Below, piece by piece: positions 4,303-59,320 of a stretch of 64,000 bases of DNA; the first letter of the stretch is position 1; each line of letters opens with the position of its first letter. The DNA is from Escherichia phage MN04. The stretch is from the sequence record MT129654.1; one strand, given 5' to 3'. Below the pieces are notes generated by a model. The model had not been told where the DNA came from. It did not search any database and saw only the letters and a program-made list of their open reading frames with translations. A program made the position numbers and the translations under genes.

Positions 4303-4530
4303 ATGGACTATCGTATGAATAAATTTCGTAATGCTGCTTCTGATATCCTGGCCAATATTACATTTGTCCTGTTTATTGTGTGCCTTTTAATCCTGGTTAT
4401 CCCATTTGGATTGCTGTTTGTAATGATTGGTGCGCTGAGTACTGAAAAGGGTCTTGAAGGGTCTGAGTTCGAAAAACGAATCCAGGCTGTGCATAGTGTT
4501 ATTGCTAAAATGATGAAGGTGAAAGAATGA
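4303..4530 (+). CDS. small membrane protein (75 aa)
   Basis: Long hydrophobic stretch (FVLFIVCLLILVIPFGLLFVMIGAL). Confidence 0.4.
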   Translation: MDYRMNKFRNAASDILANITFVLFIVCLLILVIPFGLLFVMIGALSTEKGLEGSEFEKRIQAVHSVIAKMMKVKE

Positions 4531-4823
4531 AACGTTTTGAAGAGTATGTAGCTACTGATTGGGCGGCTTGGGACAAGTTTGGCCAAGAATGGTACTTCCA
4601 TGACTGTGACCTGAACCCGGAATTCTTTATCGGTAAGGAAGATGACCTTAAAGATATCTATGCTCTGTCAGAGATTCACGGTATTAAACCTACCGTCTAC
4701 TTCTCTTTTGATGATATGGGATTCCTTATCCAGATTTACATCCCGTATGGAACTAATGAAGACGAAGTTATCAAAACTTGGGACTACCAAGGAGTTATTT
4801 CCTGTGGACCAAAAGTTAACTAA
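4527..4823 (+). CDS. hypothetical protein (98 aa)
   Basis: ORF with overlapping start. Confidence 0.45.
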   Translation: MKRFEEYVATDWAAWDKFGQEWYFHDCDLNPEFFIGKEDDLKDIYALSEIHGIKPTVYFSFDDMGFLIQIYIPYGTNEDEVIKTWDYQGVISCGPKVN

Positions 4824-8008: not shown

Positions 8009-8320
8009 ATGCAAAGCCATGACATTTCTCAATTGACTGATGAGCAAATTGAAGAAGCCCAGCAACGTTTAGAAGAGCACAATATTAAAGAAGCCAATTC
8101 GCAAGCGGCTAAGATTCTTAAGAAGAATGCTCGTGAAATCCGTCGTTTAAATCTCCATGCCCAAGGCGCTGTACTTGAAAACAACTTTGAAGCATATAAG
8201 TACGCTTTAATTAAATTACGCGGTATTTACCGTCAACCTGTTACTGATGAACTTGTTCAATTGATGTGGGAATCTACCCGCAAACAAATTTGGGAAATCG
8301 TCAATGGCTCTAGTAAATAA
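8009..8320 (+). CDS. hypothetical protein (103 aa)
   Basis: ORF, gene packing. Confidence 0.45.
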   Translation: MQSHDISQLTDEQIEEAQQRLEEHNIKEANSQAAKILKKNAREIRRLNLHAQGAVLENNFEAYKYALIKLRGIYRQPVTDELVQLMWESTRKQIWEIVNGSSK

Positions 8321-8592
8321 ACCCTTTAAACGGCTTCTTATTGGAGCCGCCTTCAGACTTCGCTCATACGGTAATATTTGTATTAAGCAGACCGAAACCG
8401 AATATAAAATGGTTGGGCAGTATTCCGATGAAATTTTTCGGATTGAGCCTGTAGCCAAGGTTTGGGTGGATTCACATCAACTTAAGAAGTGGTGGCAACG
8501 ATGATAACATGGACAGGTGGCTAATGAAAGACGAACATCCGGATTTTTAAGCTATGAATGACGAATACGAAAAAGTTTAAGAGGTTTTATGA

Positions 8593-8766
8593 ATGACGAA
8601 TTCGATGGATTTTGATAAGATTAAATCTGACAAAAATGAGATGATACTTAAATTTGAAGCTGCTCGTATTAAAGCGGAAAATGAAGGTATTATTACCTAT
8701 AAGCCTATCAAGTTCAGGTCTTCTCATGAACCTCTGTATGGTGTATTAATTGGTAAAGGAGCTTAG
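8593..8766 (+). CDS. hypothetical small protein (57 aa)
   Basis: ATG with GAGG upstream; ends at the terminator hairpin. Confidence 0.3.
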   Translation: MTNSMDFDKIKSDKNEMILKFEAARIKAENEGIITYKPIKFRSSHEPLYGVLIGKGA

Positions 8767-8778
8767 GCTCCTTTTTTG
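8757..8778 (+). terminator. intrinsic terminator
   Basis: GGAGCTTAGGCTCC hairpin followed by TTTTTT. Confidence 0.6.
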
Positions 8779-8800
8779 CTTTATATTCGGATGATAAAAT
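8777..8800 (+). promoter_or_regulatory. middle promoter candidate (MotA box + -10)
   Basis: TGCTTTA, 11-nt spacer, TAAAAT, upstream of the 47/46 unit. Confidence 0.45.
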
Positions 8801-8820
8801 GAACCAACTGAGGAGAACAT

Positions 8821-8964
8821 ATGGAATTACTTTTAGGATATGTCGTGTTATTCATGGCATTCTACACATTCACACGAGCCTGTTGGATAGGATTCTTTTC
8901 TACTCCTGATGGGTTCATCTCAATAATTTTATTTTGCATTGCGATAACGGTGCTCGGCTTATGA
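8821..8964 (+). CDS. small hydrophobic protein (47 aa)
   Basis: CTGAGGAGAACAT-ATG TIR; predicted TM peptide; stop overlaps the gene 47 start (ATGA). Confidence 0.35.
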   Translation: MELLLGYVVLFMAFYTFTRACWIGFFSTPDGFISIILFCIAITVLGL

Positions 8965-9983
8965 AAATATTAAACACAGGTGACTGGCACCTTGGAGTGA
9001 AGGCTGATGATGTGTGGGTACAAAATATCCAACGTCAAGGTATCCAAGACGCTATCAATTATTCTAAAGCAAATGGTATTACCGTGTGGATTCAATACGG
9101 TGATATCTTTGACGTTCGTAAAGCAATTACTCATAAGTGTATGGAATTCGCTCGCGAAATCTCTGATTTGCTTAAAGCTAATGGCATTACCATGTATACC
9201 ATTGTTGGTAATCATGATATGCACTACAAAAACACCCTAACTCCTAACGCTGCTTCTGAAGTTCTCGGTAAATACGACCATATCAAGGTTATTGAGAAAC
9301 CTACTACGGTTAACTTTGATGGCACCGAAATTGATTTGATTCCATGGATATGTGAAGAAAACACGACTGATATCATGGACCATATCAAAAATACCACAGC
9401 AGATTTCTGTATTGGACATTGGGAATTAAATGGTTTCTATTTCTATAAAGGAATGAAATCTCATGGTTTAGAACCTGATTTCCTTAAAAAGTATAAGCAA
9501 GTTTGGTCAGGCCACTTCCACACTATTTCTGATGCAGCAAACGTCAAGTACATTGGTACTCCATGGACCCTGACTGCAGGTGATGAGAACGACCCTCGTG
9601 GTTTCTGGATTTTCGATACCGAAACTCATAAAATGGATTTCATCATTAATGAAACCTGTTGGCATCGTAAGATTCATTATCCTAATGCGACTATCGATTA
9701 CAAAGATTTTACAAATATCGCAGTTCGTGTTATAGTCGATAAAATCGATGACGGCCTTACTAAGTTCGAATCAGAGCTTGAAAAGGTTGTTCACTCTTTA
9801 CGTATTGTGTCTAAGGTAGATAATAGTGTTGATATCGATGATTCTGAAGAGGAAGATGAAGTTAAATCCCTCTTGGATATGATGTATGATTATATCGACG
9901 CCCTTCCTGATGGCCACACTGAAGAAGACGTTAAAGCCCTTAAGACTATGGCCGCACAACTTTATAATGAGGTTACACGATGA
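8961..9983 (+). CDS. 47: recombination endonuclease subunit gp47 (Mre11-like)
   Basis: MKILNTGDWHLGVKADD..., GDIFDVRKAITHK, GNHDMHYKN metallophosphoesterase motifs; matches recalled T4 gp47. Start refined from the track's 8934. Confidence 0.9.
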   Translation: MKILNTGDWHLGVKADDVWVQNIQRQGIQDAINYSKANGITVWIQYGDIFDVRKAITHKCMEFAREISDLLKANGITMYTIVGNHDMHYKNTLTPNAASEVLGKYDHIKVIEKPTTVNFDGTEIDLIPWICEENTTDIMDHIKNTTADFCIGHWELNGFYFYKGMKSHGLEPDFLKKYKQVWSGHFHTISDAANVKYIGTPWTLTAGDENDPRGFWIFDTETHKMDFIINETCWHRKIHYPNATIDYKDFTNIAVRVIVDKIDDGLTKFESELEKVVHSLRIVSKVDNSVDIDDSEEEDEVKSLLDMMYDYIDALPDGHTEEDVKALKTMAAQLYNEVTR

Positions 9984-10243
9984 CTTTAGATGAATTCAAA
10001 AAATCGGGACTTGAACTGGAACACGACTGTATAGTTATTGACGATGATGGGCAACCTAGTACAATTAAGTTCTGGTTTGAAGCCGTGAGCACTCGTGATA
10101 CCGGCGAGCTTATTAAAGTTTATGTTGCTACCGATTGGGCTGTAGAATTTAGCTTTAATGTAATGGTAGATGATACTCCAGAAACATTAATTCATATGGC
10201 TGAATCATGCATCAAGGATGCTTATAACGATGAAGACTTTTAA
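9980..10243 (+). CDS. hypothetical protein (87 aa)
   Basis: ORF between 47 and 46; overlaps both neighbours slightly. Confidence 0.45.
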   Translation: MTLDEFKKSGLELEHDCIVIDDDGQPSTIKFWFEAVSTRDTGELIKVYVATDWAVEFSFNVMVDDTPETLIHMAESCIKDAYNDEDF

Positions 10244-11912
10244 GTTAAAAAAAGTAACGTATAAAAATATTATGTCGGTAGGGCAGCAGCCCATTACAAT
10301 CCAACTTGACAAGGTCCAAAAGACCTTAGTCACTGGTAAAAATGGTGCAGGGAAATCAACATTCCTTGAAGCTGTAACATTTGCTCTGTTCGGTAAGCCT
10401 TTTCGTGATGTTAAGAAAGGGCAGTTGATTAACTCAAGTAACAAGAAAGACCTTTTGGTCGAACTGTGGATGGAATATGATGGCAAAGAATACTATATCA
10501 AACGCGGGCAAAAACCCAACGTTTTTGAAATCTCTTGTGACGGTGAACGTCTTGATGAATCTGCCAGCAGTAAAGACTTCCAAGCGGAATTTGAACAGCT
10601 TATCGGAATGTCCTATGCAAGCTTCAAACAAATTGTCGTACTCGGCACAGCTGGATATACCCCTTTTATGGGCCTATCCACTCCTGCAAGAAGAAAACTC
10701 GTCGAAGACCTGTTAGAGGTTTCTGTATTAGCGGATATGGATAAGTTGAACAAATCTTTAATTCGTGAGACTAATAGCCAAATCCAAGTAATAGACGTTA
10801 AGCAAGATTCTATTACCCAACAAATTAAAATTTATAATGACAACGAAGAACGTCAACGTAAATTATCCGGCGAGAACGCCGCCCGCCTACAATTAATGTA
10901 TGATGAGCTCGTTAAAGAAGCCAGGACTGCGAAGGCGAGCATAGAATCCCTGACTGATGAATTACTCAATGTTATCGTAGATGATGACCCTAGCGACTCC
11001 ATGAGTGACCTGAGTAATAAAGGATTTGCAATCAAAAATGATATGGCAACCTTTACAAAGGTGGTTAAGTTATACGAAACTGGTGGTCACTGCCCTACGT
11101 GTATGCAAGGGTTAGAAGAGCACGGTAATATCCTTACTAAAATTAAGGATAAAAACTTTGAGCTTCAAAAATCTTTGGATAAGATTAATGAGCAATACCA
11201 AGAACTCAAGCTCATTAAGGACCAAGTAACCGAACAACGCAATAAAGCGTTGGCTATTAAATCTCAGATAGCTACTCATAAGCAGCAAGCCATTACTGCT
11301 GTAGAGAAAGCCAAAAAGGTTAAGGTATTAATTGACCAAGCGGCAGCTGAGTTCGTAAGTAATGCCGAAGAGATTGCTGTGCTTCAAGCAGAGCTTGATA
11401 AAATCGTCTCTACCAAATCGTCCTTGGTAATGGAAAAATATCATCGTGGAATTCTGACAGAAATGTTGAAGGATACTGGTATTAAAGGTTCCATTATTAA
11501 GAAATACATTCCTATCTTTAATAAGCAGATTAATTCTTATTTGAAGATTATGGAAGCGGACTACGTCTTTACCTTAGACGAAGAATTCAACGAGACGATT
11601 AAATCACGTGGACGTGAAGACTTTAGTTATGCTTCATTTTCACAGGGTGAGAAAGCACGTATTGATATCGCACTTCTTTTTACATGGCGTGATATTGCTT
11701 CTAAGGTATCAGGTGTTAATATCAGCACGTTAATTCTTGATGAAGTTTTTGATAGTGCCACGGATTCTGAAGGCGTTAAGAGCATTGCAACCATCTTGAA
11801 TAGCCTTGAGGATACGAACGTGTTCATTATCTCTCACCGAGACCATGACCCACAAGCTTATGGCCAACATCTTCAAATGAAGAAAGTTGGGCGATTCACG
11901 GTGTTAGAATGA
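10230..11912 (+). CDS. 46: recombination endonuclease subunit gp46 (Rad50/SbcC-like ATPase)
   Basis: Walker A GKNGAGKST, coiled-coil middle with CPTC zinc hook, C-terminal LDEVFDSATD signature; matches recalled T4 gp46. Confidence 0.9.
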   Translation: MKTFKLKKVTYKNIMSVGQQPITIQLDKVQKTLVTGKNGAGKSTFLEAVTFALFGKPFRDVKKGQLINSSNKKDLLVELWMEYDGKEYYIKRGQKPNVFEISCDGERLDESASSKDFQAEFEQLIGMSYASFKQIVVLGTAGYTPFMGLSTPARRKLVEDLLEVSVLADMDKLNKSLIRETNSQIQVIDVKQDSITQQIKIYNDNEERQRKLSGENAARLQLMYDELVKEARTAKASIESLTDELLNVIVDDDPSDSMSDLSNKGFAIKNDMATFTKVVKLYETGGHCPTCMQGLEEHGNILTKIKDKNFELQKSLDKINEQYQELKLIKDQVTEQRNKALAIKSQIATHKQQAITAVEKAKKVKVLIDQAAAEFVSNAEEIAVLQAELDKIVSTKSSLVMEKYHRGILTEMLKDTGIKGSIIKKYIPIFNKQINSYLKIMEADYVFTLDEEFNETIKSRGREDFSYASFSQGEKARIDIALLFTWRDIASKVSGVNISTLILDEVFDSATDSEGVKSIATILNSLEDTNVFIISHRDHDPQAYGQHLQMKKVGRFTVLE

Positions 11913-24815: not shown

Positions 24816-25137
24816 TTTATCTGATTTAGATAATTTTGTTAAAGATACTGAAGAGGGTCCTAGTGACCCTCGTTATTATGAGAAATCGTTAGATATAATC
24901 CGTAAGTCAATGGGTTCTGTTAAGCAGGAAATTATGCTTACATTACCCGATGGCACTGCTCACATCGTTTATGTGATGAATATTGTTATTGAGAAAGATG
25001 GAAAAGTGTCGGTTGATTTCGGAACGCCTTCCGAAGACCGAAAAGAAGAGCTAGCGCTTCATGTAGAAAAATGTGTTACAATGCAAATACAAGAAGAACT
25101 GGATAAAATTAAATCTAAGAGGTGGTGGAAGTGGTAG
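24808..25137 (+). CDS. hypothetical protein; gp40-like by position
   Basis: 109-aa ORF between uvsX and 41, as in T4; no sequence confirmation. Confidence 0.4.
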   Translation: MTDLSDLDNFVKDTEEGPSDPRYYEKSLDIIRKSMGSVKQEIMLTLPDGTAHIVYVMNIVIEKDGKVSVDFGTPSEDRKEELALHVEKCVTMQIQEELDKIKSKRWWKW

Positions 25138-26561
25138 AAACTATTTTGGCTCAACTGCTAGGCAATAGTGATTATTTCACTAAGGTCTGGCCTTATATGA
25201 ATGATTCTTATTTTGACCAGGGTCCGGCAAAGACCCTTTTCAAAGAAATCAAAAAACATGTCAATGAATATAATGCGGTGCCTTCTAAAAATGCTTTGAG
25301 TATTGCATTAGATAACAGCACCCTTTCAGAAGTTGAACACCAAGGAGCTAAAGAGCTTTTAAGTTCACTGAACGCTGGCCCTGAAGACCAAGAATGGTTG
25401 GTTAAAGAGACAGAGAAATATGTTCAGAAGGCAGCGATGTATAATGCCACTTCAAAAATTATTGAAATTCAAACTAATGCCGACCTTCCGGTTGAGCAAC
25501 AAAATAGAAAACTCCCAGGTATTGGTGCTATTCCAGATATCATGCGTGATGCATTATCGATTTGTTTCGATTCTGAATTAGGCCATGACTGGATGGATGA
25601 CTATGAAGAACGTTTTAAAAGTTATTCCGATAAAGCACGTAAGGTTCCATTCCGTCTTAATATTCTGAATAAGATTACTAAGGGTGGCGCTGAGTTTGGT
25701 ACTGAAAACGTATTGTTGGCAGGAACAAACGTAGGTAAGTCTCTGGGTCTGTGTTCATTGGCTGCTGATTACCTTCAATCCGGTTACGATGTTCTTTATA
25801 TCTCCATGGAGATGGCAGAGGAAGTATGCGCTAAGCGTATCGATGCTAACCTTCTAGATGTATCACTGGATGATATTGATGATGGTCACGTCTCATGGCC
25901 TGAATATAAAGCTAAGATGGATAAGTGGCGTTCAACTGCTACTTTAGGTCGTTTAAAGATTAAACAGTATCCTACTGGTGGTGCTAATGCCGATACATTC
26001 CGTGCATTATTAAACGAATACAAGCTCAAACAAAACTTTGTCCCACAGGTCGTTATCGTCGACTACTTGGCTATCTGTGCTTCATCCCGTACGAAAGTTT
26101 TCTCTGAAAACAGTTATGGATTGATTAAGATGGTTGCCGAAGAACTACGTGGACTTGCAGTAGAGAAGAAATTATTGTTGTGGACTGCAGCCCAGACTAC
26201 TCGTGGTGCGAACGTTGCCGCCGAAATCGATATGGCTGATATCGCTGAATCCTTTGGTATTGCACATACTGCAGACTTCATGTTAGGTGTGGTCGAGACA
26301 GAAGAGTTTGCTCAGATGGGTATGCAGATGGTTAAGCAGCTTAAATCTCGTTATGGTGATAAGAGCTACTACAACAAATTTAAGATTGGTGTTAAGAAAG
26401 GAAACCAGCGTTGGTATGAAGTTGAAGACGATTCTAACCCAGGCCCAGTGAACACCGTTCGTGAGGCTACAGGTGAAATGAACCGCCAAGCAGAGGTCAA
26501 TCGCCAGTCGCGTGTTAATAGAAGCGATTTAGACGATTTAGCAGCATCTATCAAATTTTAA
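25122..26561 (+). CDS. 41: replicative helicase gp41 (DnaB-like)
   Basis: 479 aa; GTNVGKSLGLCSLAADYL Walker A and IVDYLAIC; matches recalled T4 gp41. Confidence 0.95.
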   Translation: MVEVVETILAQLLGNSDYFTKVWPYMNDSYFDQGPAKTLFKEIKKHVNEYNAVPSKNALSIALDNSTLSEVEHQGAKELLSSLNAGPEDQEWLVKETEKYVQKAAMYNATSKIIEIQTNADLPVEQQNRKLPGIGAIPDIMRDALSICFDSELGHDWMDDYEERFKSYSDKARKVPFRLNILNKITKGGAEFGTENVLLAGTNVGKSLGLCSLAADYLQSGYDVLYISMEMAEEVCAKRIDANLLDVSLDDIDDGHVSWPEYKAKMDKWRSTATLGRLKIKQYPTGGANADTFRALLNEYKLKQNFVPQVVIVDYLAICASSRTKVFSENSYGLIKMVAEELRGLAVEKKLLLWTAAQTTRGANVAAEIDMADIAESFGIAHTADFMLGVVETEEFAQMGMQMVKQLKSRYGDKSYYNKFKIGVKKGNQRWYEVEDDSNPGPVNTVREATGEMNRQAEVNRQSRVNRSDLDDLAASIKF

Positions 26562-26586
26562 GGAGCTTCGGCTCCTTTTTTTTGTT
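26561..26586 (+). terminator. intrinsic terminator after gene 41
   Basis: AGGAGCTTCGGCTCCT hairpin plus T9. Confidence 0.7.
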
Positions 26587-26592
26587 TTAAGG

Positions 26593-27308: not shown

Positions 27309-27548
27309 ATGAATATTGTATTAATGAAGCCAACCCCTAGCTCTTTTTGGAATAAATCTTTTGGTAAGCATAATATGTTTATCCAACGCACCGTAAGCAG
27401 CTGGGAACTAGTTCTTTCAGTAGGTCATAATGATTATGAACAGGAATATGTAGAGTTCTTCGAATTTCCTGTGAAGCCTACTAAGCGTCAGATTCGTCAG
27501 ACCAAACGTAAATTCCGTAAAATTTATTTGGAAGATTCGTTAAAATAA
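27309..27548 (+). CDS. small basic protein with PTKRQIRQTKRKFRK motif
   Basis: Paralogue of the 3514 and 28339 ORFs by shared C-terminal motif. Confidence 0.4.
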   Translation: MNIVLMKPTPSSFWNKSFGKHNMFIQRTVSSWELVLSVGHNDYEQEYVEFFEFPVKPTKRQIRQTKRKFRKIYLEDSLK

Positions 27549-27902: not shown

Positions 27903-28337
27903 ATGATTAACAGAACTTTGGTTATTAAAAAGCTTCGTTGTAAAAATCCAAACGCACAAGCATACAGGATGTTTTGGAGCGACGACCATCAGTACCTAGG
28001 TTATTTTATTGTTGATAGCGACGATAGAATTGTATTCGCTCATAAACTTCTTAACAGAGAATTAAACCATTGGCAAGAACTTATTGCTGTTAAGTCTAAA
28101 TTATTTTCGCTCAATGCAATGCACCAATTGGTTTATTTTTTCGCTGACGGGTTTCCGGACAAGGTTGAATTTGAAGGATTCGAATTTAAAGATATCCACC
28201 CGGGCAACGAATTGAACGACCGCGTTAATATGGATATCCCTAGCAAGTATATCAAAAACAGTCTGTTGAAAATTCTGGAAGCTCCGGTTTATTCAATTGA
28301 CGACCAGATTTTTAATGCCTTTATGAACCGAGGTTGA
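27903..28337 (+). CDS. hypothetical protein (144 aa)
   Basis: ATG right after the upstream stop; the track's longer ORF (27819) overlaps the preceding gene. Confidence 0.45.
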   Translation: MINRTLVIKKLRCKNPNAQAYRMFWSDDHQYLGYFIVDSDDRIVFAHKLLNRELNHWQELIAVKSKLFSLNAMHQLVYFFADGFPDKVEFEGFEFKDIHPGNELNDRVNMDIPSKYIKNSLLKILEAPVYSIDDQIFNAFMNRG

Positions 28338-28338
28338 T

Positions 28339-28560
28339 ATGTTTGTCTTAACTCAATTCTCTAAAGCAGTGTATAGTTACTCTTGTCAGTGGGAAGTCTT
28401 TATTGATTCTCCTTCGCCCAAGTACGGCGTTTTTGGACGAGTAACTACTCAGGCTTACGTTGCACGACCTACTAAAAGACAGATTCGTAAGCTTAAAAAG
28501 GCACACCGTCAACTGATTAAAAGAAGGGAACAATATGAGTGCAATGTGTACGGGCTCTAA
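28339..28560 (+). CDS. small basic protein with RPTKRQIRKLKK motif
   Basis: Paralogue of the 3514 and 27309 ORFs. Confidence 0.4.
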   Translation: MFVLTQFSKAVYSYSCQWEVFIDSPSPKYGVFGRVTTQAYVARPTKRQIRKLKKAHRQLIKRREQYECNVYGL

Positions 28561-28726
28561 GATTTCTGTATTCGAACTGTTCGAAGAATATGAAATCGTA
28601 TCAAAAGACCAAGAAGCTATCCATATTATTGCAGGTGATGGCGTAACTTGGATTATCCCACTTTACCACGAAGATACGTATGAAGTCACTGATGCAAATG
28701 GTGATAAAGCTATTTTCGTAATATAA
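28535..28726 (+). CDS. hypothetical protein (63 aa)
   Basis: ORF; start uncertain. Confidence 0.35.
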   Translation: MSAMCTGSKISVFELFEEYEIVSKDQEAIHIIAGDGVTWIIPLYHEDTYEVTDANGDKAIFVI

Positions 28727-28729
28727 ATA
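28722..28729 (+). promoter_or_regulatory. late promoter consensus TATAAATA
   Basis: Exact TATAAATA about 14 nt before the SD of the 28743 small ORF. Confidence 0.4.
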
Positions 28730-28742
28730 AGGCCAGGAGCCT

Positions 28743-28904
28743 ATGAAATCTTTTAAAGAAGTTATGAACGAAGATATGGTCGCAGGCGATGCTGGTGGAA
28801 ATCCATCTAATATTGCCTCCGGAACTACCTCAGGCGCAGTCGTCAACAAAGGGCCTGAACAAATCCCATCTAAAAAGCGTAAAGAAAAATCCGAAAACGA
28901 ATGA
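28743..28904 (+). CDS. small Gly/Lys-rich protein (53 aa) behind a late-promoter consensus
   Basis: TATAAATA at 28722-28729, then GGAG and ATG 28743. Not in the ORF track (<60 aa). Confidence 0.35.
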   Translation: MKSFKEVMNEDMVAGDAGGNPSNIASGTTSGAVVNKGPEQIPSKKRKEKSENE

Positions 28905-28942
28905 TATAATGGCTCTATTAATTTAGAGCCCAAGGAAAAATA

Positions 28943-29971
28943 ATGTCATATGTCGATAGAGAATTTGCTGTACGTGCCTTGAATTACCAACCTAAATTCA
29001 GACAAGTAACTGGTAGTGATTTTAAATTAAATTGTCGTTGCCGTGTATGTGGTGACTCCCAAAAAGATGAAAACAAAGCTCGATTCTGGGCCTATCCGGC
29101 CAATGACGGCTCTGTAATGCTACACTGTTTTAACTGTGATTATTCGGCAGGAATTAAGAAGTACCTATACGAATATGAGCCTGATTTATATCGCGAATAT
29201 ATTCTTGAGAAACATAAAGAGCAATCGTTCGGGAGACAAGCTGCACCTAAGGTGGAGATATCTGAAAAAATTAAAGCTAAGATGCCTGTCATTGAAAAGC
29301 TTAATTTCTGTGAACGATTAGATAGAATGCCGAAAGACCATCCTATTATTAAGTATGTAACTCTGCGGTGCATTCCTGAAAATAAATGGAATCGGTTATG
29401 GTTTACTAAAGAATGGCCTGCATTGGTGAATTCTGTTAATCCAGGGACCTATTCCAAAGAAATGCCTGAACCACGTTTGGTTATTCCAATTTTCAATAAG
29501 AATAAGCAAATTGAAAGTTTTCAGGGCCGAGCCTTACGTAAAGATGCTCCACAAAAATATATTACAATAAAAGCTCATGACCAAGCTACAAAAATATATG
29601 GAATGGATACAGTTGACGAACGTCAATTGGTGTGGGTAATGGAAGGTCCTATTGATTCATTATTCGTACCTAATGCAATAGCAATTACTGGTGGGTCGTT
29701 GGACTTGGCTATGGTTCCGTGTAAAGAAACTCGTGCCTGGGTAATGGACAATGAACCCCGTCATCCTGACACAATTAAGCGTATGCAACGATTAGTTGAT
29801 GCCGGCGAAAGGGTCCTATTCTGGGACAAGGCTCCATGGCCTTCTAAAGATATAAATGATATGGTTATGAAAGATAAAGCTGATATAAATGATATATTGA
29901 CGTATATGAAAGCTAATATAGCCCAAGGGTTAATGGCAAAAATGAGGCTTTCAAAATATTCTAAAATTTAG
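28943..29971 (+). CDS. 61: DNA primase gp61
   Basis: 342 aa; zinc ribbon CRCRVCGDS...CFNC and VMEGPIDSLF Toprim; matches recalled T4 gp61. Confidence 0.9.
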   Translation: MSYVDREFAVRALNYQPKFRQVTGSDFKLNCRCRVCGDSQKDENKARFWAYPANDGSVMLHCFNCDYSAGIKKYLYEYEPDLYREYILEKHKEQSFGRQAAPKVEISEKIKAKMPVIEKLNFCERLDRMPKDHPIIKYVTLRCIPENKWNRLWFTKEWPALVNSVNPGTYSKEMPEPRLVIPIFNKNKQIESFQGRALRKDAPQKYITIKAHDQATKIYGMDTVDERQLVWVMEGPIDSLFVPNAIAITGGSLDLAMVPCKETRAWVMDNEPRHPDTIKRMQRLVDAGERVLFWDKAPWPSKDINDMVMKDKADINDILTYMKANIAQGLMAKMRLSKYSKI

Positions 29972-54232: not shown

Positions 54233-54508
54233 ATGACTAAAATTGAAATCGTTTCCGAAATTGCTACTATTGTTTCCATTTTGATTAAAACGGATTGTGA
54301 AGACATCATGCAACGCCGTGATGAGTTTATTGCCTTTTTGAATGAGTTGGGTATTCGTAATGAACATGGAAAGGAACTTAACGGTCTATCTTTTAATAAA
54401 CTCTTTAAGTCTTTAACTGAAGATGAACGTGATACTCTTATTGAGCAATTTAATGAAGGGTATGAAGATATACACCGTTATCTAATGATGTATACCTCCA
54501 ATTTTTAA
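54233..54508 (+). CDS. asiA: anti-sigma70 factor AsiA
   Basis: 91 aa; IVSILIK...FIAFLNELGI...LIEQFNEGYEDIHRYLMMYT matches recalled T4 AsiA. Confidence 0.8.
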   Translation: MTKIEIVSEIATIVSILIKTDCEDIMQRRDEFIAFLNELGIRNEHGKELNGLSFNKLFKSLTEDERDTLIEQFNEGYEDIHRYLMMYTSNF

Positions 54509-55158
54509 CGAGTTCGACCTAATGTCCTCCCGGCCTGACCACACATAGACGAAAGTCTAGGAAATCCTAAATCCGGTTTGATGTCATACCAGTATAATGA
54601 TATCGAACCGGCATAGATGTTATCCAAATTAAAAAACGGACATGAAAACATATACGTGAAATGGGTTTTCTTCTTTGTAGGAAGGAACACAGTTTCTGTA
54701 CTTGATTCAAAATAATTCCCGTTAACTCCCGCCATATACTCCACTGACGTTTTGTCAATCGGAAATCCTCCCGTATTTTTTGCGTCTACCGTTTCCGGTA
54801 ATTTACCCTCATAAGCAACCATGTCCACAAAATAATTCATGTTGGTTGGTCTAAAAGAATATATTGCTGTGAAGTCTGCGCCTGAAGAAGAATGCACTAT
54901 TCGGAGCTGCTCGATAGCCGCAATTTTAAATCTATTGTCCTGGTCTTGTCTAATCATTTCAGTATAAGAGGCATAAGTTGTCTCTTTATAAAAGTTTAGA
55001 ATATATTCGCCTTTATACCAAACCAGTGCCATAAAGAACAATAATATTACGACTAGGACCCGGGAAAAAACTACTTTCCCGGAAGAAGTATCTTTAAAAA
55101 TTCTATCAAGAAGTCCAAAAAGTAGGTCTGATAATGAAAATCCTACTTTTGGTTCCAT
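54505..55158 (-). CDS. t: holin T
   Basis: 217 aa; DLLFGLLDRIFKD, single N-terminal TM, YSFRP...YFVD..AYEGKLP, CPFFNLDNIYAG match recalled T4 T; late promoter TATAAATA just upstream. Confidence 0.9.
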   Translation of the reverse strand: MEPKVGFSLSDLLFGLLDRIFKDTSSGKVVFSRVLVVILLFFMALVWYKGEYILNFYKETTYASYTEMIRQDQDNRFKIAAIEQLRIVHSSSGADFTAIYSFRPTNMNYFVDMVAYEGKLPETVDAKNTGGFPIDKTSVEYMAGVNGNYFESSTETVFLPTKKKTHFTYMFSCPFFNLDNIYAGSISLYWYDIKPDLGFPRLSSMCGQAGRTLGRTR

Positions 55159-56005: not shown

Positions 56006-59000
56006 TTATTTTAACAATGATTTAACTAAAGCTTTAAGTTCTTCAATCTCTGATTTCAATTCTGTTATTTCGGCAGTATGCTCATTGATTGCAGCTGTAT
56101 TTAAACCAATTACACCGTTATAGTTCAAACGAAGTAAAGCTTCACTATTAGGGTCACCTTCAACCAATTCAGGTAAAATAGCTTGAACTTCTTGGGCAAT
56201 TAAACCAGCATTAGGTTCCCATTTCTGATTACCTTCCTCATCTAGGCCTCGCTTCTGCATATAAGTGTAACCGTTAATTTTAGAAAGCTTCTGAGAAGCA
56301 TTTTCAAATTTAACAAGGTCTTTTTTAACGCGAATATCAGAACGAACATAAACATCACGGACATATGTAGAATAGGCATCACTTTGTTGGATTAAATGAC
56401 CAAAAGAAATAATAGCCCTTCCTGTTTCGGTCCACAAAGCACCGGTGGTATCCCAAAGACCTTGATGGATATGGTAAGAGCTAGACCAAGATGCAATATG
56501 CATACCATTGGCAACCATATTGATTCGGCCATCACCGCCGTGTGATAATCCTGTGTCATTATCACCAATAGCAATACTAGGAGAGCCTAATCCGTTAACA
56601 GTTCCAACACCAATGGCAGGAGTCTGGACTAAAGTCGGGGCGTAAAATAAACCGCTAGAGTGGAATTCGAAAATACCTACAGGACCGTCGCCACGCTCGG
56701 CATTACCTACTCGAATTATCGCTTGTCCCCATGCTTGTGGAGTACGACGCATGCCTAATTCAACAGAAGTAGTATAACCCTGACCACTAATTACAGATCG
56801 GCCTTTAATAATGGGATAATAACTGTCTTCACCCACACTACCAAACTCAAGGAAATAAGGTGCTTCTAAGCCCCATTGGTCACCCCATGCACCAGATTTA
56901 TGTGCAATCCAGTTGGAACCGTTCATATAAATACGGTCTCGGTTTACATTGAATACTGAAGCACCTTGTGGAGATAAAACAACCTCACCATTATGGGTGA
57001 TATTAATACCACCTTGGGATTGGAAGCTCCAGAAGGCTAAACCGTTATCAGCACCACCATTACCTACATACCAGTTATCAACACCACCTTTTTTACCCTT
57101 AACATAACCAGCTTCATCTGCCGGATAATCAATAACAATAGCGTCTGAATTGGTTTTAAGAGTTAAGCGGCCTGTCATTGTGTCCCCGCCTTTACCAACA
57201 CGAGTATTCACCGCTGCGTCAAGGTTAGTAGCACCGCTATACTTGTTCCAAATAGAACCTGCAATATTACCATCAGTATTCATGAAAGCTGTACCGGCAT
57301 ATAAGCGGTTCTGAGCCATGAAGTTACCTTCTTTGGTAAAGCGCCAATATTTTAATCCTGTAGCATCACCATCACCAAGCAAATCACCTTGAGCAACAAT
57401 TCGATATTCACTTGTAGCTCGGTCCATACCTTGAGTAACAGTTACGTTCGAATCAATATTTTTCTGCTTAGTAATAGGGTAAAATGCTTGAGTTGCAGCA
57501 TCGAGCGTTTGATATACCAGAGCTTTAGTCGTGTTCTGGTTGGCATAAGATGCACCGTTACTATTAGGGAATTCTAATGCACCATTACCCCTAAAATAAA
57601 CCTGGTCTGCTTCTAAGTTAGGGATTTTAACCCGACCGGTGTCTAACATAATACTTAATGGGCGTAATGGACCCAATCCGCCACTTTCACCAGCATTAAC
57701 ATTGGTTGGGATAATATGTAGCTGGTCTTCTGAATTTCGAAAAATAACACCATACTTATCATTCCAAATACGAAGACCACTAGCAGCGCGGACTTTAATT
57801 TCATTGGAAACATATAGATTGCGTTTTAAAGATGTATCTTGACTGACAGACAATCCTTCGACGATGTTCATCGTGCCGTTTAAATAAGATTCGACTTTAC
57901 CTGCCGTATTTCGTTGAATATAGTGCATCCAGCCGGTAGCATCAGATGTTTCCAATACGTTTTTACGAGAACCACCTACCGTATTAAAAGTGTCACCCCA
58001 ACCTTTGAGCTCTATATTATCAACTGAACTATATCCTGAGGTACTTCCTTTAAAAAGCACAGTGGAAGCGTTACCACGACCGTCAATATTAACCGAACCA
58101 CCACGGACTTCAACGTTACCAGGAGTAACCAACAACCCACCATCAGTGTTAACGTTTGTTACACCTTTACCACGGAAATAATGGTGGTATTTACCACTCT
58201 GATGATAACCTAAAAGAGTCTGCCCATCACCAAAGCCGTTTTTATCATTAGTAGTATTAACAATAACTAATGGATAGTTTTGAGCTGTAGGAAGAATTAA
58301 ATCAGAACCGTTGGTTGAATAACCCGCAACTAACTGTTTAAGGCTTGTAACTTCAGTCGGAGTTGTAAGTAAAGTATAAGCTCCATTATTAACTGTATGG
58401 AACTGGCCGTCTTGTTTCCATTTCAAACCTGTGTTATTGTCACCAAGAGCAATTGAAGCCGTCCCTAATTCAGAATATCCTTTAGGGCCACCTGGAAGAC
58501 CTACAGAAATAGAATGACCGGCTTTCAATCCACCTGCCCAGTTAAACGACAAAATATAAGTGTCTAAGCCATCTCCGGAATACCAGGCTATTCCGTCATT
58601 AACATTAACTTCGTGGAAAATACCTGCTCCTACAGCATTTCGCATAACACGGAGGTGGTTAATAGCCGTTTCGCTTTCTGCCAATGGAGTGTTATTTGAT
58701 AATGAAGATATATCGTAATCGCCGGCGGCTTTACCGTCGGTAATAACTTTATTAGTATAAATTATTGGAGATTTTACCGATGTTCCACCAGAAATAGATG
58801 GAGCATAAAATAAACCGTCACCGTTGAATGCAAAAATATTAGATGTTGAATTAGTGTAATCCTGAACACGAACATTTAAGATTTGCTTGGTATCCCCAGC
58901 ACGGTTTTGAGAATAAATTATGCCTCTTTCACGCGCATCAGCCAAATCCTGGAATCGAACGTGGGTAGTTCCTGCACCCCGTACAAGAACTTCACCGTTA

Positions 59001-59320
59001 TCTGTCATTAGGCGAGATTTTGCTGTGATATCACCATTTGCTGTTATACTTCCGGATGTCGTATAACTACCTGTTTGGGTAAAAGCACCCTTCAGGGCAT
59101 AATCGCCGGTCTGGTTGTAGTTACCGTTATGAATAACGTTTCCGTCGATATTACCACCTTTAGCAAAGCCAAGGTCGATAATCGCTCCAGTGTCATCTTT
59201 GGTAAATAACAAACGGTCTTTTAAGTTAATAGCCAGCTCGCCTTCAGCCAACTGCGCTGGCGTAGGACGTACACCAGCTACTTTACTTCTTTTAAATTGT
59301 ATCTGTTTTAAAGTAGCCAT
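56006..59320 (-). CDS. 37: long tail fibre distal subunit gp37
   Basis: 1104 aa; [36 protein letters not shown] matches the recalled T4 gp37 N-terminus; C-terminal intramolecular-chaperone-like domain. Confidence 0.9.

Follow-up and report, generated by a model that had tools for sequence, protein, structure and literature searches.

The closest described system to the one considered here is that of the internal proteins IPI, IPII and IPIII of phage T4, which reach the scaffolding core of the prohead by means of a capsid-targeting sequence (CTS) at the N-terminus (Mullaney & Black 1996, reviewed in PMC9026906 and PMC9958956). Within the CTS, targeting is determined by residues 4 and 7 and processing by residues 8 and 10 (PMC9026906). 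A second point of comparison is the N-fist of the capsid protein gp23, formed by the first approximately 25 residues of the mature protein (gp23*): within the prohead it stays disordered until the particle expands, whereupon the N-fist reaches the outer surface, touches four subunits and, together with the I-domain linkers, makes up the binding site for Soc (PMC9958956, PMC9546572). Gene 61.1 was listed among five open reading frames (ORFs) conserved in T4 and five T4-like genomes for which no function had been identified (Nolan et al. 2006, PMC1524935), and in a 2025 CRISPRi-ART screen it was still labelled ‘UNKNOWN’, its knock-down in T4 having no effect on fitness. Here, we analysed the gene in a 64 000-nucleotide stretch of Escherichia phage MN04 (MT129654.1), referred to below as the window, where it lies at 28743–28904 on the plus strand. 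The comparisons suggest that gp61.1 is an internal-protein-style precursor whose cargo would be a paralogue of the capsid N-fist, with a predicted late promoter that is specific to certain lineages.

The stretch around this gene shares 99.4% identity with the reverse strand of the record of Escherichia phage JS98 (Dhakavirus, Straboviridae). An earlier, sequence-only reading of the window had placed a 53-residue ORF with start codon ATG 28743 just upstream of primase, and this description holds. The ORF list and translation give a product of 53 residues followed by a TGA stop (MKSFKEVMNEDMVAGDAGGNPSNIASGTTSGAVVNKGPEQIPSKKRKEKSENE; 6 Gly, 7 Lys), which matches phrog_1823 over its full length (residues 1–53, E = 5.1e-32), is 100% identical to gp61.1 of JS98 and JS10, and is annotated in JS98 as 61.1, ‘similar to bacteriophage T4 gp61.1 hypothetical protein’. 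DNA primase gene 61 follows at 28943–29971 on the plus strand (phrog_47, E = 1e-97, with concordant JS98 annotation) and is found directly downstream of 61.1 in all T4-like lineages examined; only 2 nt separate the two genes in T4. Searches with tblastn found 61.1 in 1,440 phage records, with hosts that include Escherichia, Klebsiella, Shigella, Aeromonas, Acinetobacter, Enterobacter and Vibrio, and an exhaustive profile search across 1.84 billion representative proteins yielded 57 family clusters. These matches identify the ORF as gene 61.1, real and widely conserved, in a T4-like phage of the JS98 type (Dhakavirus).

Codons 1–10 (28743–28772, plus strand) encode MKSFKEVMNE, a CTS-like putative propeptide. 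T4 IPII and IPIII start with MKTYQEFIAE and IPI with MKTFKEF (T4 record); gp61.1 starts with MKTFKEFIKE in T4 and with MKTYKEFIKE in phages of the T2/T6 type. The CTS-bearing ORFs of JS98 begin MKTYKEFIAE (IPIII), MKTYQEFITE, MKTYNEFIAE, MKTYNEFLNE and MKTYQEFIKE. As in the internal proteins, the start of gp61.1 fits the pattern MK[TS][YF].E[FV][IVLM].E with the targeting and processing positions largely conserved, the family having Tyr or Phe at position 4, Phe at position 7 (Val in the window), Ile, Val, Leu or Met at position 8 and an invariant Glu10. The pattern M[KL][ST][FY].[ED][FV], looked for in 128 kb of JS98 sequence, matched internal-protein-type ORFs and gp61.1 only, and among the 661 ATG-initiated ORFs of the window MKSFKEVMNE obtained the top CTS score (z = 4.1), with relatives of the protein scoring z = 5.8–6.9. 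Direct reading of gp23 reveals the same pattern ahead of its cleavage site (F59-x-x-F62-L63-x-E65), which suggests a single pattern, [YF]xxF[IL]xE, common to the targeting signal of the internal proteins and to the last part of the gp23 propeptide. Two other ORFs came to light in the course of these comparisons. A 98-codon ORF at 4527–4823 on the plus strand ranks second in the window for a CTS-like N-terminus (MKRFEEYVAT); it lacks Glu10, has no Pfam match and is probably not a CTS protein. In JS98, an unannotated 97-codon ORF in the ipI locus (trna.4–57B) starts with MKTYQEFIKE on the minus strand (ATG 24553 of locus L026, which spans JS98 48001–98000) and is probably an internal head protein gene missing from the annotation of the JS98 RefSeq record.

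The end of this N-terminal segment resembles a site for the prohead protease gp21. Met8-Asn9-Glu10, ahead of Asp11, fits the processing-site motif of a hydrophobic residue at position 8 and Glu at position 10; Glu10 is invariant, and the P3 residue is Leu, Ile, Val or Met throughout the family. A hydrophobic-x-Glu string immediately before [MV][VTI][AGS]GD is near-universal in the 57 clusters, including the 155-residue forms, where LPLFE is followed by DMVAGD. The site is moreover in register with that of the capsid protein, since E10 of gp61.1 aligns with E65 of T4 gp23 and D11 with A66, the first residue of gp23*. As a separate observation, JS98 carries two tandem paralogues of the vertex protein gene 24 outside the window (8205–10769 of locus L003; JS98 106204–108768), each with an L-x-E-S motif at residues 8–11 that is consistent with gp21 processing.

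Codons 11–38 (DMVAGDAGGNPSNIASGTTSGAVVNKGP; 28773–28856, plus strand) encode the apparent cargo, a paralogue of the N-fist of gp23* (T4 residues 66–93). A single-sequence phmmer search against all PDB chains matched T4-type gp23 only, at residues 58–96 (E = 0.0024), and a 10-sequence family profile likewise retrieved only gp23 from the PDB (E = 1.3e-7). The gp23 of the phage's own type (JS98) shares 38% identity with gp61.1 over 45 residues by BLASTP, and the exhaustive profile search also recovered a gp23 N-terminal fragment and a divergent gp23 of 624 residues (P0076 and P0078). The aligned segment of gp23 covers the maturation site and the N-fist, residues 66–91 (PMC7136217), and in the available structures (PDB 5VF3, 6UZC and 7VS5) this region carries the signature that gp61.1 shares, G-D-x-G-x-N-x-x-N-I-A-x-G-x-T-S-G-A-V-x-x-x-G-P. 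The core of gp61.1 starts in the same register as the N-fist, right after the hydrophobic-x-Glu site, and on this alignment we regard residues 11–38 as homologous to it. E10, the CTS-like residues and the N-fist core are all under strong purifying selection across very divergent phages.

Beyond the shared Gly-Pro the two proteins part: gp23 continues into its N-arm, whereas codons 39–53 of 61.1 (EQIPSKKRKEKSENE; 28857–28901, plus strand) encode a conserved EQIP followed by a Lys/Arg-rich charged tail. Residues 11–53 contain six Lys/Arg and six Asp/Glu, giving a net charge of about 0; the T4 orthologue is slightly acidic, and some long forms of the protein have a net basic tail. AlphaFold2, run on the family alignment, predicted a largely unstructured monomer with low confidence (pLDDT 66, pTM 0.19), as would be expected for a homologue of a segment that becomes ordered only on docking. 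Neither the short nor the long forms of gp61.1 matched Pfam (E ≤ 10) or NCBIfam. The Pfam miss is explained by the Gp23 model, which starts after the N-fist; JS98 gp23 itself matches PF07068 only from residue approximately 86 onwards. Unlike gp23, gp61.1 is free-standing, without an HK97-fold body. It is, by these comparisons, the paralogue of one gp23 segment that lacks the HK97 A and P domains, and not a capsid protein. The labels ‘major capsid protein’ and ‘major capsid domain-containing protein’ that several records attach to this family of 53–155-residue proteins are misleading and should be corrected.

The family occurs in several architectures. Short forms (50–70 residues) with a CTS-like start are found in Tequatrovirus, Dhakavirus, Gaprivervirus, Kanagawavirus and PM2-like phages. 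Many other genera, among them Mosigvirus, S16-like phages, CC31 (where the gene is annotated 61.1) and Acinetobacter phages of the Kimel type, encode a form of 154–158 residues (phrog_2086), present at about 2170–2650 in each of 15 loci of our set. In the long form, a conserved domain of approximately 105 residues stands in place of the CTS and ends in LP[LMV]FE before DMVAGD. This domain follows the pattern Y..[KR]F..L...F..W.A...GIID..G..L[KR].P.T..EK..YT.FH..VR..K; it has no match in Pfam or NCBIfam and no BLAST similarity to gp20, 21, 22, 23, 24, 67 or 68 of JS98, and no separate copy of it was found in the window or in the T4 and JS98 loci. It may be a long propeptide. A few forms reach approximately 250 residues through an added C-terminal domain (2198–2935 in the uncultured contig L033, and proteins P0040, P0060 and P0065). 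In these, the added domain comes after the Lys-rich stretch and begins with a second CTS-like string (MNEV..F.QFVE...), so that the proteins look as if two CTS-type genes had fused.

Set against the internal proteins, gene 61.1 shows further likenesses and some clear differences. In each case the genes are dispensable, lie on the early strand and have early and/or late promoters, and the CTS-bearing orf135 of JS98 is also preceded by the late promoter consensus TATAAATA. The mature part of gp61.1, however, would be just 43 residues long, has no overall basic character and shows homology to a gp23 segment, in contrast to the folded globular effectors released from the internal proteins. Internal protein genes are hypervariable, whereas T4-like genera have conserved 61.1 at a fixed site beside primase, and in many of those genera the domain of approximately 105 residues replaces the 10-residue CTS. 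A further parallel is offered by the head peptides derived from gp22, gp67 and gp68, which are short gp21 products cut after Glu inside the prohead, as is predicted for gp61.1; those peptides are breakdown fragments of the scaffold, whereas gp61.1 would be the product of a dedicated gene with a capsid-protein motif.

T4-type late promoters depend on gp55, gp33 and gp45 and need no −35 element. Their consensus sits at −13 to −6, and the −13 position is known to be loose in phages other than T4 (PMC1524935). An exact copy of the consensus, TATAAATA, is present at 28722–28729 on the plus strand, as the sequence-only reading had stated, and the GGAG Shine–Dalgarno sequence that it reported before the ATG is found at 28736–28739, 6 nt past the motif and 3 nt ahead of the start codon. 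The distance from motif to ATG, which it gave as about 14 nt, is slightly shorter at 13 nt. If the motif occupies −13 to −6, the late transcript would start at A28735, 6 nt after the motif, with an 8-nt leader (AGGAGCCU) that carries the Shine–Dalgarno sequence at its 5′ end. The arrangement is the same as in T4 gene e, where the same TATAAATA is followed by 13 nt that include the Shine–Dalgarno sequence (GGAGG in e) and then the ATG, giving a leader of approximately 8 nt; in gene e, as in 61.1, early transcripts also cover the gene.

The motif is not more frequent in the 64-kb window than expected by chance (4 copies versus 6.8 ± 2.8). Its number thus gives no support, and we relied instead on position and conservation. 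Three of the four copies lie 13–31 nt 5′ of the start of a same-strand ORF; besides 61.1, these ORFs are soc (30826) and holin t (54505–55158, minus strand), both well known as late genes. The fourth (56926–56933, plus strand) is antisense within tail-fibre gene 37 (56006–59320, minus strand), has no downstream ORF and is probably a chance occurrence. Among 23 exact sites examined in JS98 sequence, the four of the window included, 19 are situated 13–48 nt before a gene start, and the 13 nt at 61.1 is the shortest such spacing. The curated T4 record has no promoter features annotated in the 61.1 region.

Exact copies of TATAAATA precede the ATG of 61.1 by 13 nt in Dhakavirus (JS98, VR5) and Kanagawavirus, by 16 nt in Gaprivervirus and by 24 nt in the uncultured contig, so that the exact motif is kept in three genera and one contig despite differences in spacer, flanks and upstream ORFs. 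Variants in which G, C or A precedes ATAAATA are found in phages of the CC31 type (GATAAATA, 12 nt from the ATG), in those of the Acinetobacter Kimel type (CATAAATA, 19 nt) and in locus L039 (AATAAATA, 16 nt). In 7 of 12 lineages the 35 nt upstream of 61.1 contain the degenerate form NATAAATA, which precedes only 1 of the 103 further same-strand ORFs of these loci at that distance (Fisher p = 1.4e-7, a value that overstates independence, as the 12 lineages are related); the single exception is soc. We predict that the late promoter of 61.1 is functional in the lineage of the window, and consider this quite likely. Across the family as a whole, the promoter is, from its distribution, a lineage-variable addition to 61.1 and not a universal feature of the gene.

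The promoter need not make the gene exclusively late. Gene 61.1 sits in a co-oriented early operon within the replication/early region. For gene e, McPheeters et al. in 1986 reportedly found that the ribosome binding site is hidden in a hairpin in early transcripts, so that only the late RNA is translated. Masking of this type was considered for early read-through RNA of 61.1 and rejected: the fold of 28670–28790 is no better than that of shuffled sequences (z = +0.28), and a region without structure beyond that of shuffles would leave the ribosome binding site accessible, in contrast to the situation described for e. Given the early operon position and the unmasked site, late-only expression of 61.1 is probably not to be expected.

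A second conserved element lies between 61.1 and primase, where TATAAT is followed by the hairpin GGCTCTA-TTAATT-TAGAGCC (28905–28930, plus strand; fold z = −2.88). The hairpin proper (28911–28930) begins with GG directly after the TATAAT, which together with the TGA stop of 61.1 reads TGATATAAT and resembles an extended −10 element. The intergenic element (28902–28942) is also present in eight other loci, and its stem shows compensatory changes across genera in two of eight pairs (RNAalifold on a MAFFT alignment of a five-sequence subset). In some lineages a T-run follows, making the hairpin terminator-like, an arrangement that would give a compact 61.1 transcription unit; T4, with its 2-nt gap, lacks the element. 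A short late 61.1 transcript may have its 3′ end at the hairpin, which could alternatively gate the expression of primase.

Taken together, these features suggest the following scheme. Gene 61.1 would be translated early from read-through operon transcripts and, late in infection, also from its own short-leader transcript starting at approximately 28735, topping up the supply during head building. The propeptide, or the long N-terminal domain in other genera, would carry gp61.1 into the scaffolding core of the prohead, as in the case of IPI–III, and cleavage by gp21 after Glu10 would free a peptide of 43 residues, intrinsically disordered and with a new N-terminus that imitates the one of gp23*. 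The cleaved form should be recognizable by a semi-tryptic peptide, DMVAGDAGGNPSNIASGTTSGAVVNK for the gp61.1 of the window and DMVAGDSGGNPENISIGTTSGAVVNK for that of T4. We predict this targeting and processing with roughly even confidence. The freed peptide could then stay in or on the head, or compete transiently for the partners of the N-fist region, namely the scaffold core before expansion and the neighbouring capsomers and Soc site after it. The fate and action of the peptide are the least certain part of the scheme: it might dock at sites without a partner N-fist, compete with the N-terminal region of gp23 for the scaffold, be ejected with the DNA or exit through the pores of the prohead. 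Portal-facing N-fists are known to be disordered (PMC7136217), the mutations A66D, A94V and G97S in the N-terminal region of gp23 alter head length and this region probably contacts the scaffold, and scaffold fragments are thought to leave via 14–17 Å openings in the prohead (PMC9958956, PMC9546572). In one specific version, which we regard as doubtful, the peptide acts as a free N-fist that docks at partnerless lattice sites (the portal or the gp24 vertices) or modulates Soc sites, or else is an ejected mimic that blinds a capsid-sensing host system.

A number of observations weigh against the proposal that gp61.1 is a processed head precursor supplied from a late promoter. The T4 61.1 transcript is classed as early and gp61.1 was not detected in the time-resolved T4 proteome (PMC9697503, Table S2); nor is the protein among the listed components of the T4 prohead core (PMC9958956), and the main text of a T4 head mass-spectrometry study does not mention it. 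In T4 and its near relatives TATAAATA is missing ahead of 61.1, the end of 61.2 containing TATGAATA instead, and Mosigvirus (RB69-like), S16-like phages, PM2 and locus L028 have only [AG]TTAAATA. Within the family, the CTS of the window is the most degenerate (S3, F4, V7, M8), its P3 residue is Met and not Leu or Ile, and its P1′ residue is Asp, compared with Ala or Ser in known substrates. The mature peptide would be roughly charge-neutral, as opposed to the basic internal proteins, and a disordered peptide of 43 residues could escape through the 14–17 Å openings. Finally, 61.1 is strictly syntenic with the primase gene throughout the lineages, which could mean instead that gp61.1 has a replication-linked role.

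The ipII, ipIII and e genes have ‘early’ transcripts and yet ‘late’ proteins (PMC9697503, Table S2), so the early class of 61.1 is compatible with a head-related product, and we take the dispensability of 61.1 on laboratory knock-down to be compatible with the proposal as well. The earlier suggestion of a late-expressed small protein stands in part: an exact consensus, kept in several lineages, with the geometry of gene e favours it, but late-only expression is unlikely and the T4 orthologue is early and lacks the motif. Its further suggestion, that the product is possibly virion-associated, gains from the CTS-like start, the site in gp23 register and the N-fist core, all of them sequence features, and loses from the failure to detect gp61.1 in the T4 time-course proteome and from the chance that the peptide leaves the prohead. 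Overall, the sequence-only reading is partly supported, and by more lines of sequence evidence than it had drawn on.

Other explanations of the same features deserve consideration. Gp61.1 could act as a decoy or anti-defence factor that mimics the N-terminal region of gp23, in the cytoplasm or after ejection, and so occupies a host factor or immune sensor; the head-targeting features would then be relics of gene 23 or a means of delivery. The homology is indeed to a surface or N-terminal segment of gp23 and not to its fold, and ejected anti-restriction factors are found among the CTS-bearing internal proteins, IPI* being one. An early T4 transcript and a gene dispensable in the laboratory host would fit, as would a position at the edge of an anti-defence island that holds dmd, tifA (61.4, DUF7279), spackle, a 61.2 resembling AdfA and another ORF of DUF7279. 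The distribution of anti-defence genes, however, is usually patchy, whereas 61.1 is beside primase in essentially all T4-like lineages, and purely cytoplasmic action would need neither a protease site in gp23 register nor a late promoter. We know of no sensor reported to target the N-fist, and the Gol peptide that activates Lit, which we take to lie just downstream of the N-fist at approximately gp23 residues 93–122, is absent from gp61.1. We think this explanation unlikely.

Equally improbable in our estimation is that the TATAAATA motif is fortuitous, an unused by-product of an AT-rich junction with a TAA stop, and that 61.1 is expressed only at early and middle times and works with the primase/replication module, its capsid-like sequence being a leftover. 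The motif does overlap the stop codon of the upstream ORF (28535–28726, plus strand; JS98 orf28, 63 residues, phrog_3249), whose TAA at 28724–28726 falls inside it, and its spacing is at the short extreme of the JS98 sites. The chance-level motif count, the lineages with only TTAAATA, the early, motif-free gene of T4 and the strict synteny with gene 61, down to the 2-nt gap in T4, can all be read in the same way. Chance does not readily account for the enrichment of NATAAATA in 7 of 12 lineages when just 1 of 103 neighbouring ORFs, soc, has it, for the persistence of the motif while flanks and upstream ORF change, or for the same 13-nt spacing at T4 gene e, and a leftover would not keep E10, the CTS-like residues and the N-fist core under strong purifying selection.

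Least probable is a purely transient modulator, a sub-case of the precursor model in which gp61.1, in the prohead or with gp21 and gp22, competes as a substrate or for the scaffold and so tunes cleavage timing, expansion or head length before its fragments leave: it shares the cleavage-site register and N-fist homology, and would agree with the head-length mutations of gp23, the supposed exit of scaffold peptides by the 14–17 Å openings and the lack of any such peptide among the listed components of T4 heads, but T4 knock-down has no fitness effect and the conserved charged tail has no role in it.

The surroundings of gene 61.1 follow a T4-like plan, in the order 41, an ORF resembling RB69 orf040c, dmd, 61.4, spackle, the 61.2 homologue, two small ORFs, 61.1, 61, 56 and soc. 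The DnaB-like helicase gene 41 lies upstream at 25122–26561, in agreement with the JS98 annotation, and a strong hairpin resembling an intrinsic terminator (26560–26587, plus strand; AAGGAGC-TTCG-GCTCCTT, then TTTTTTGTTT) overlaps its stop (ORF end 26561), parting it from the cluster of small ORFs. The two extra ORFs between the 61.2 homologue and 61.1 occupy 28339–28560 and 28535–28726. The first of these and the ORF at 27309–27548 both match Pfam DUF7279 (E about 1e-19) and have a PTKRQIR basic motif in common; the ORF at 27309–27548 is the homologue of 61.4/tifA, tifA being the ToxN inhibitor of T4, while in this lineage that at 28339–28560 stands as an insert between 61.2 and 61.1. A second, divergent tifA-like gene thus seems to be present in the phage. 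The 61.2 homologue (27906–28337) has a sub-threshold match to Pfam AdfA (Anti-DarT factor A) over its C-terminal 15 residues (E = 0.006); 61.2 may be AdfA, an assignment used here as context only. With dmd, tifA, spackle and the AdfA-like 61.2, the stretch 5′ of 61.1 looks like an anti-defence island.

Gene 61.1 itself and the automatic ‘capsid domain’ label that databases give its product are already known. The searchable literature, outside which most subscription journals lie, so that a prior mention is possible, states no function for gp61.1, nor a CTS, a gp21 site in gp23 register or homology to the N-fist. Reading the protein as a CTS, a prohead-protease site and a copy of the N-fist turns a long-unexplained conserved gene of the T4 family into a concrete and cheaply testable hypothesis. 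If correct, this reading would bring a further component into a virus assembly pathway that is among the best studied. A docked free N-fist would be a previously unrecognized structural or cementing component of T4-type heads, and either fate of the peptide would mean that a paralogue of a capsid fragment is delivered via the internal-protein pathway, a new type of phage component. The predicted lineage-specific late promoter, for its part, would illustrate the rewiring of an early-operon gene for late supply.

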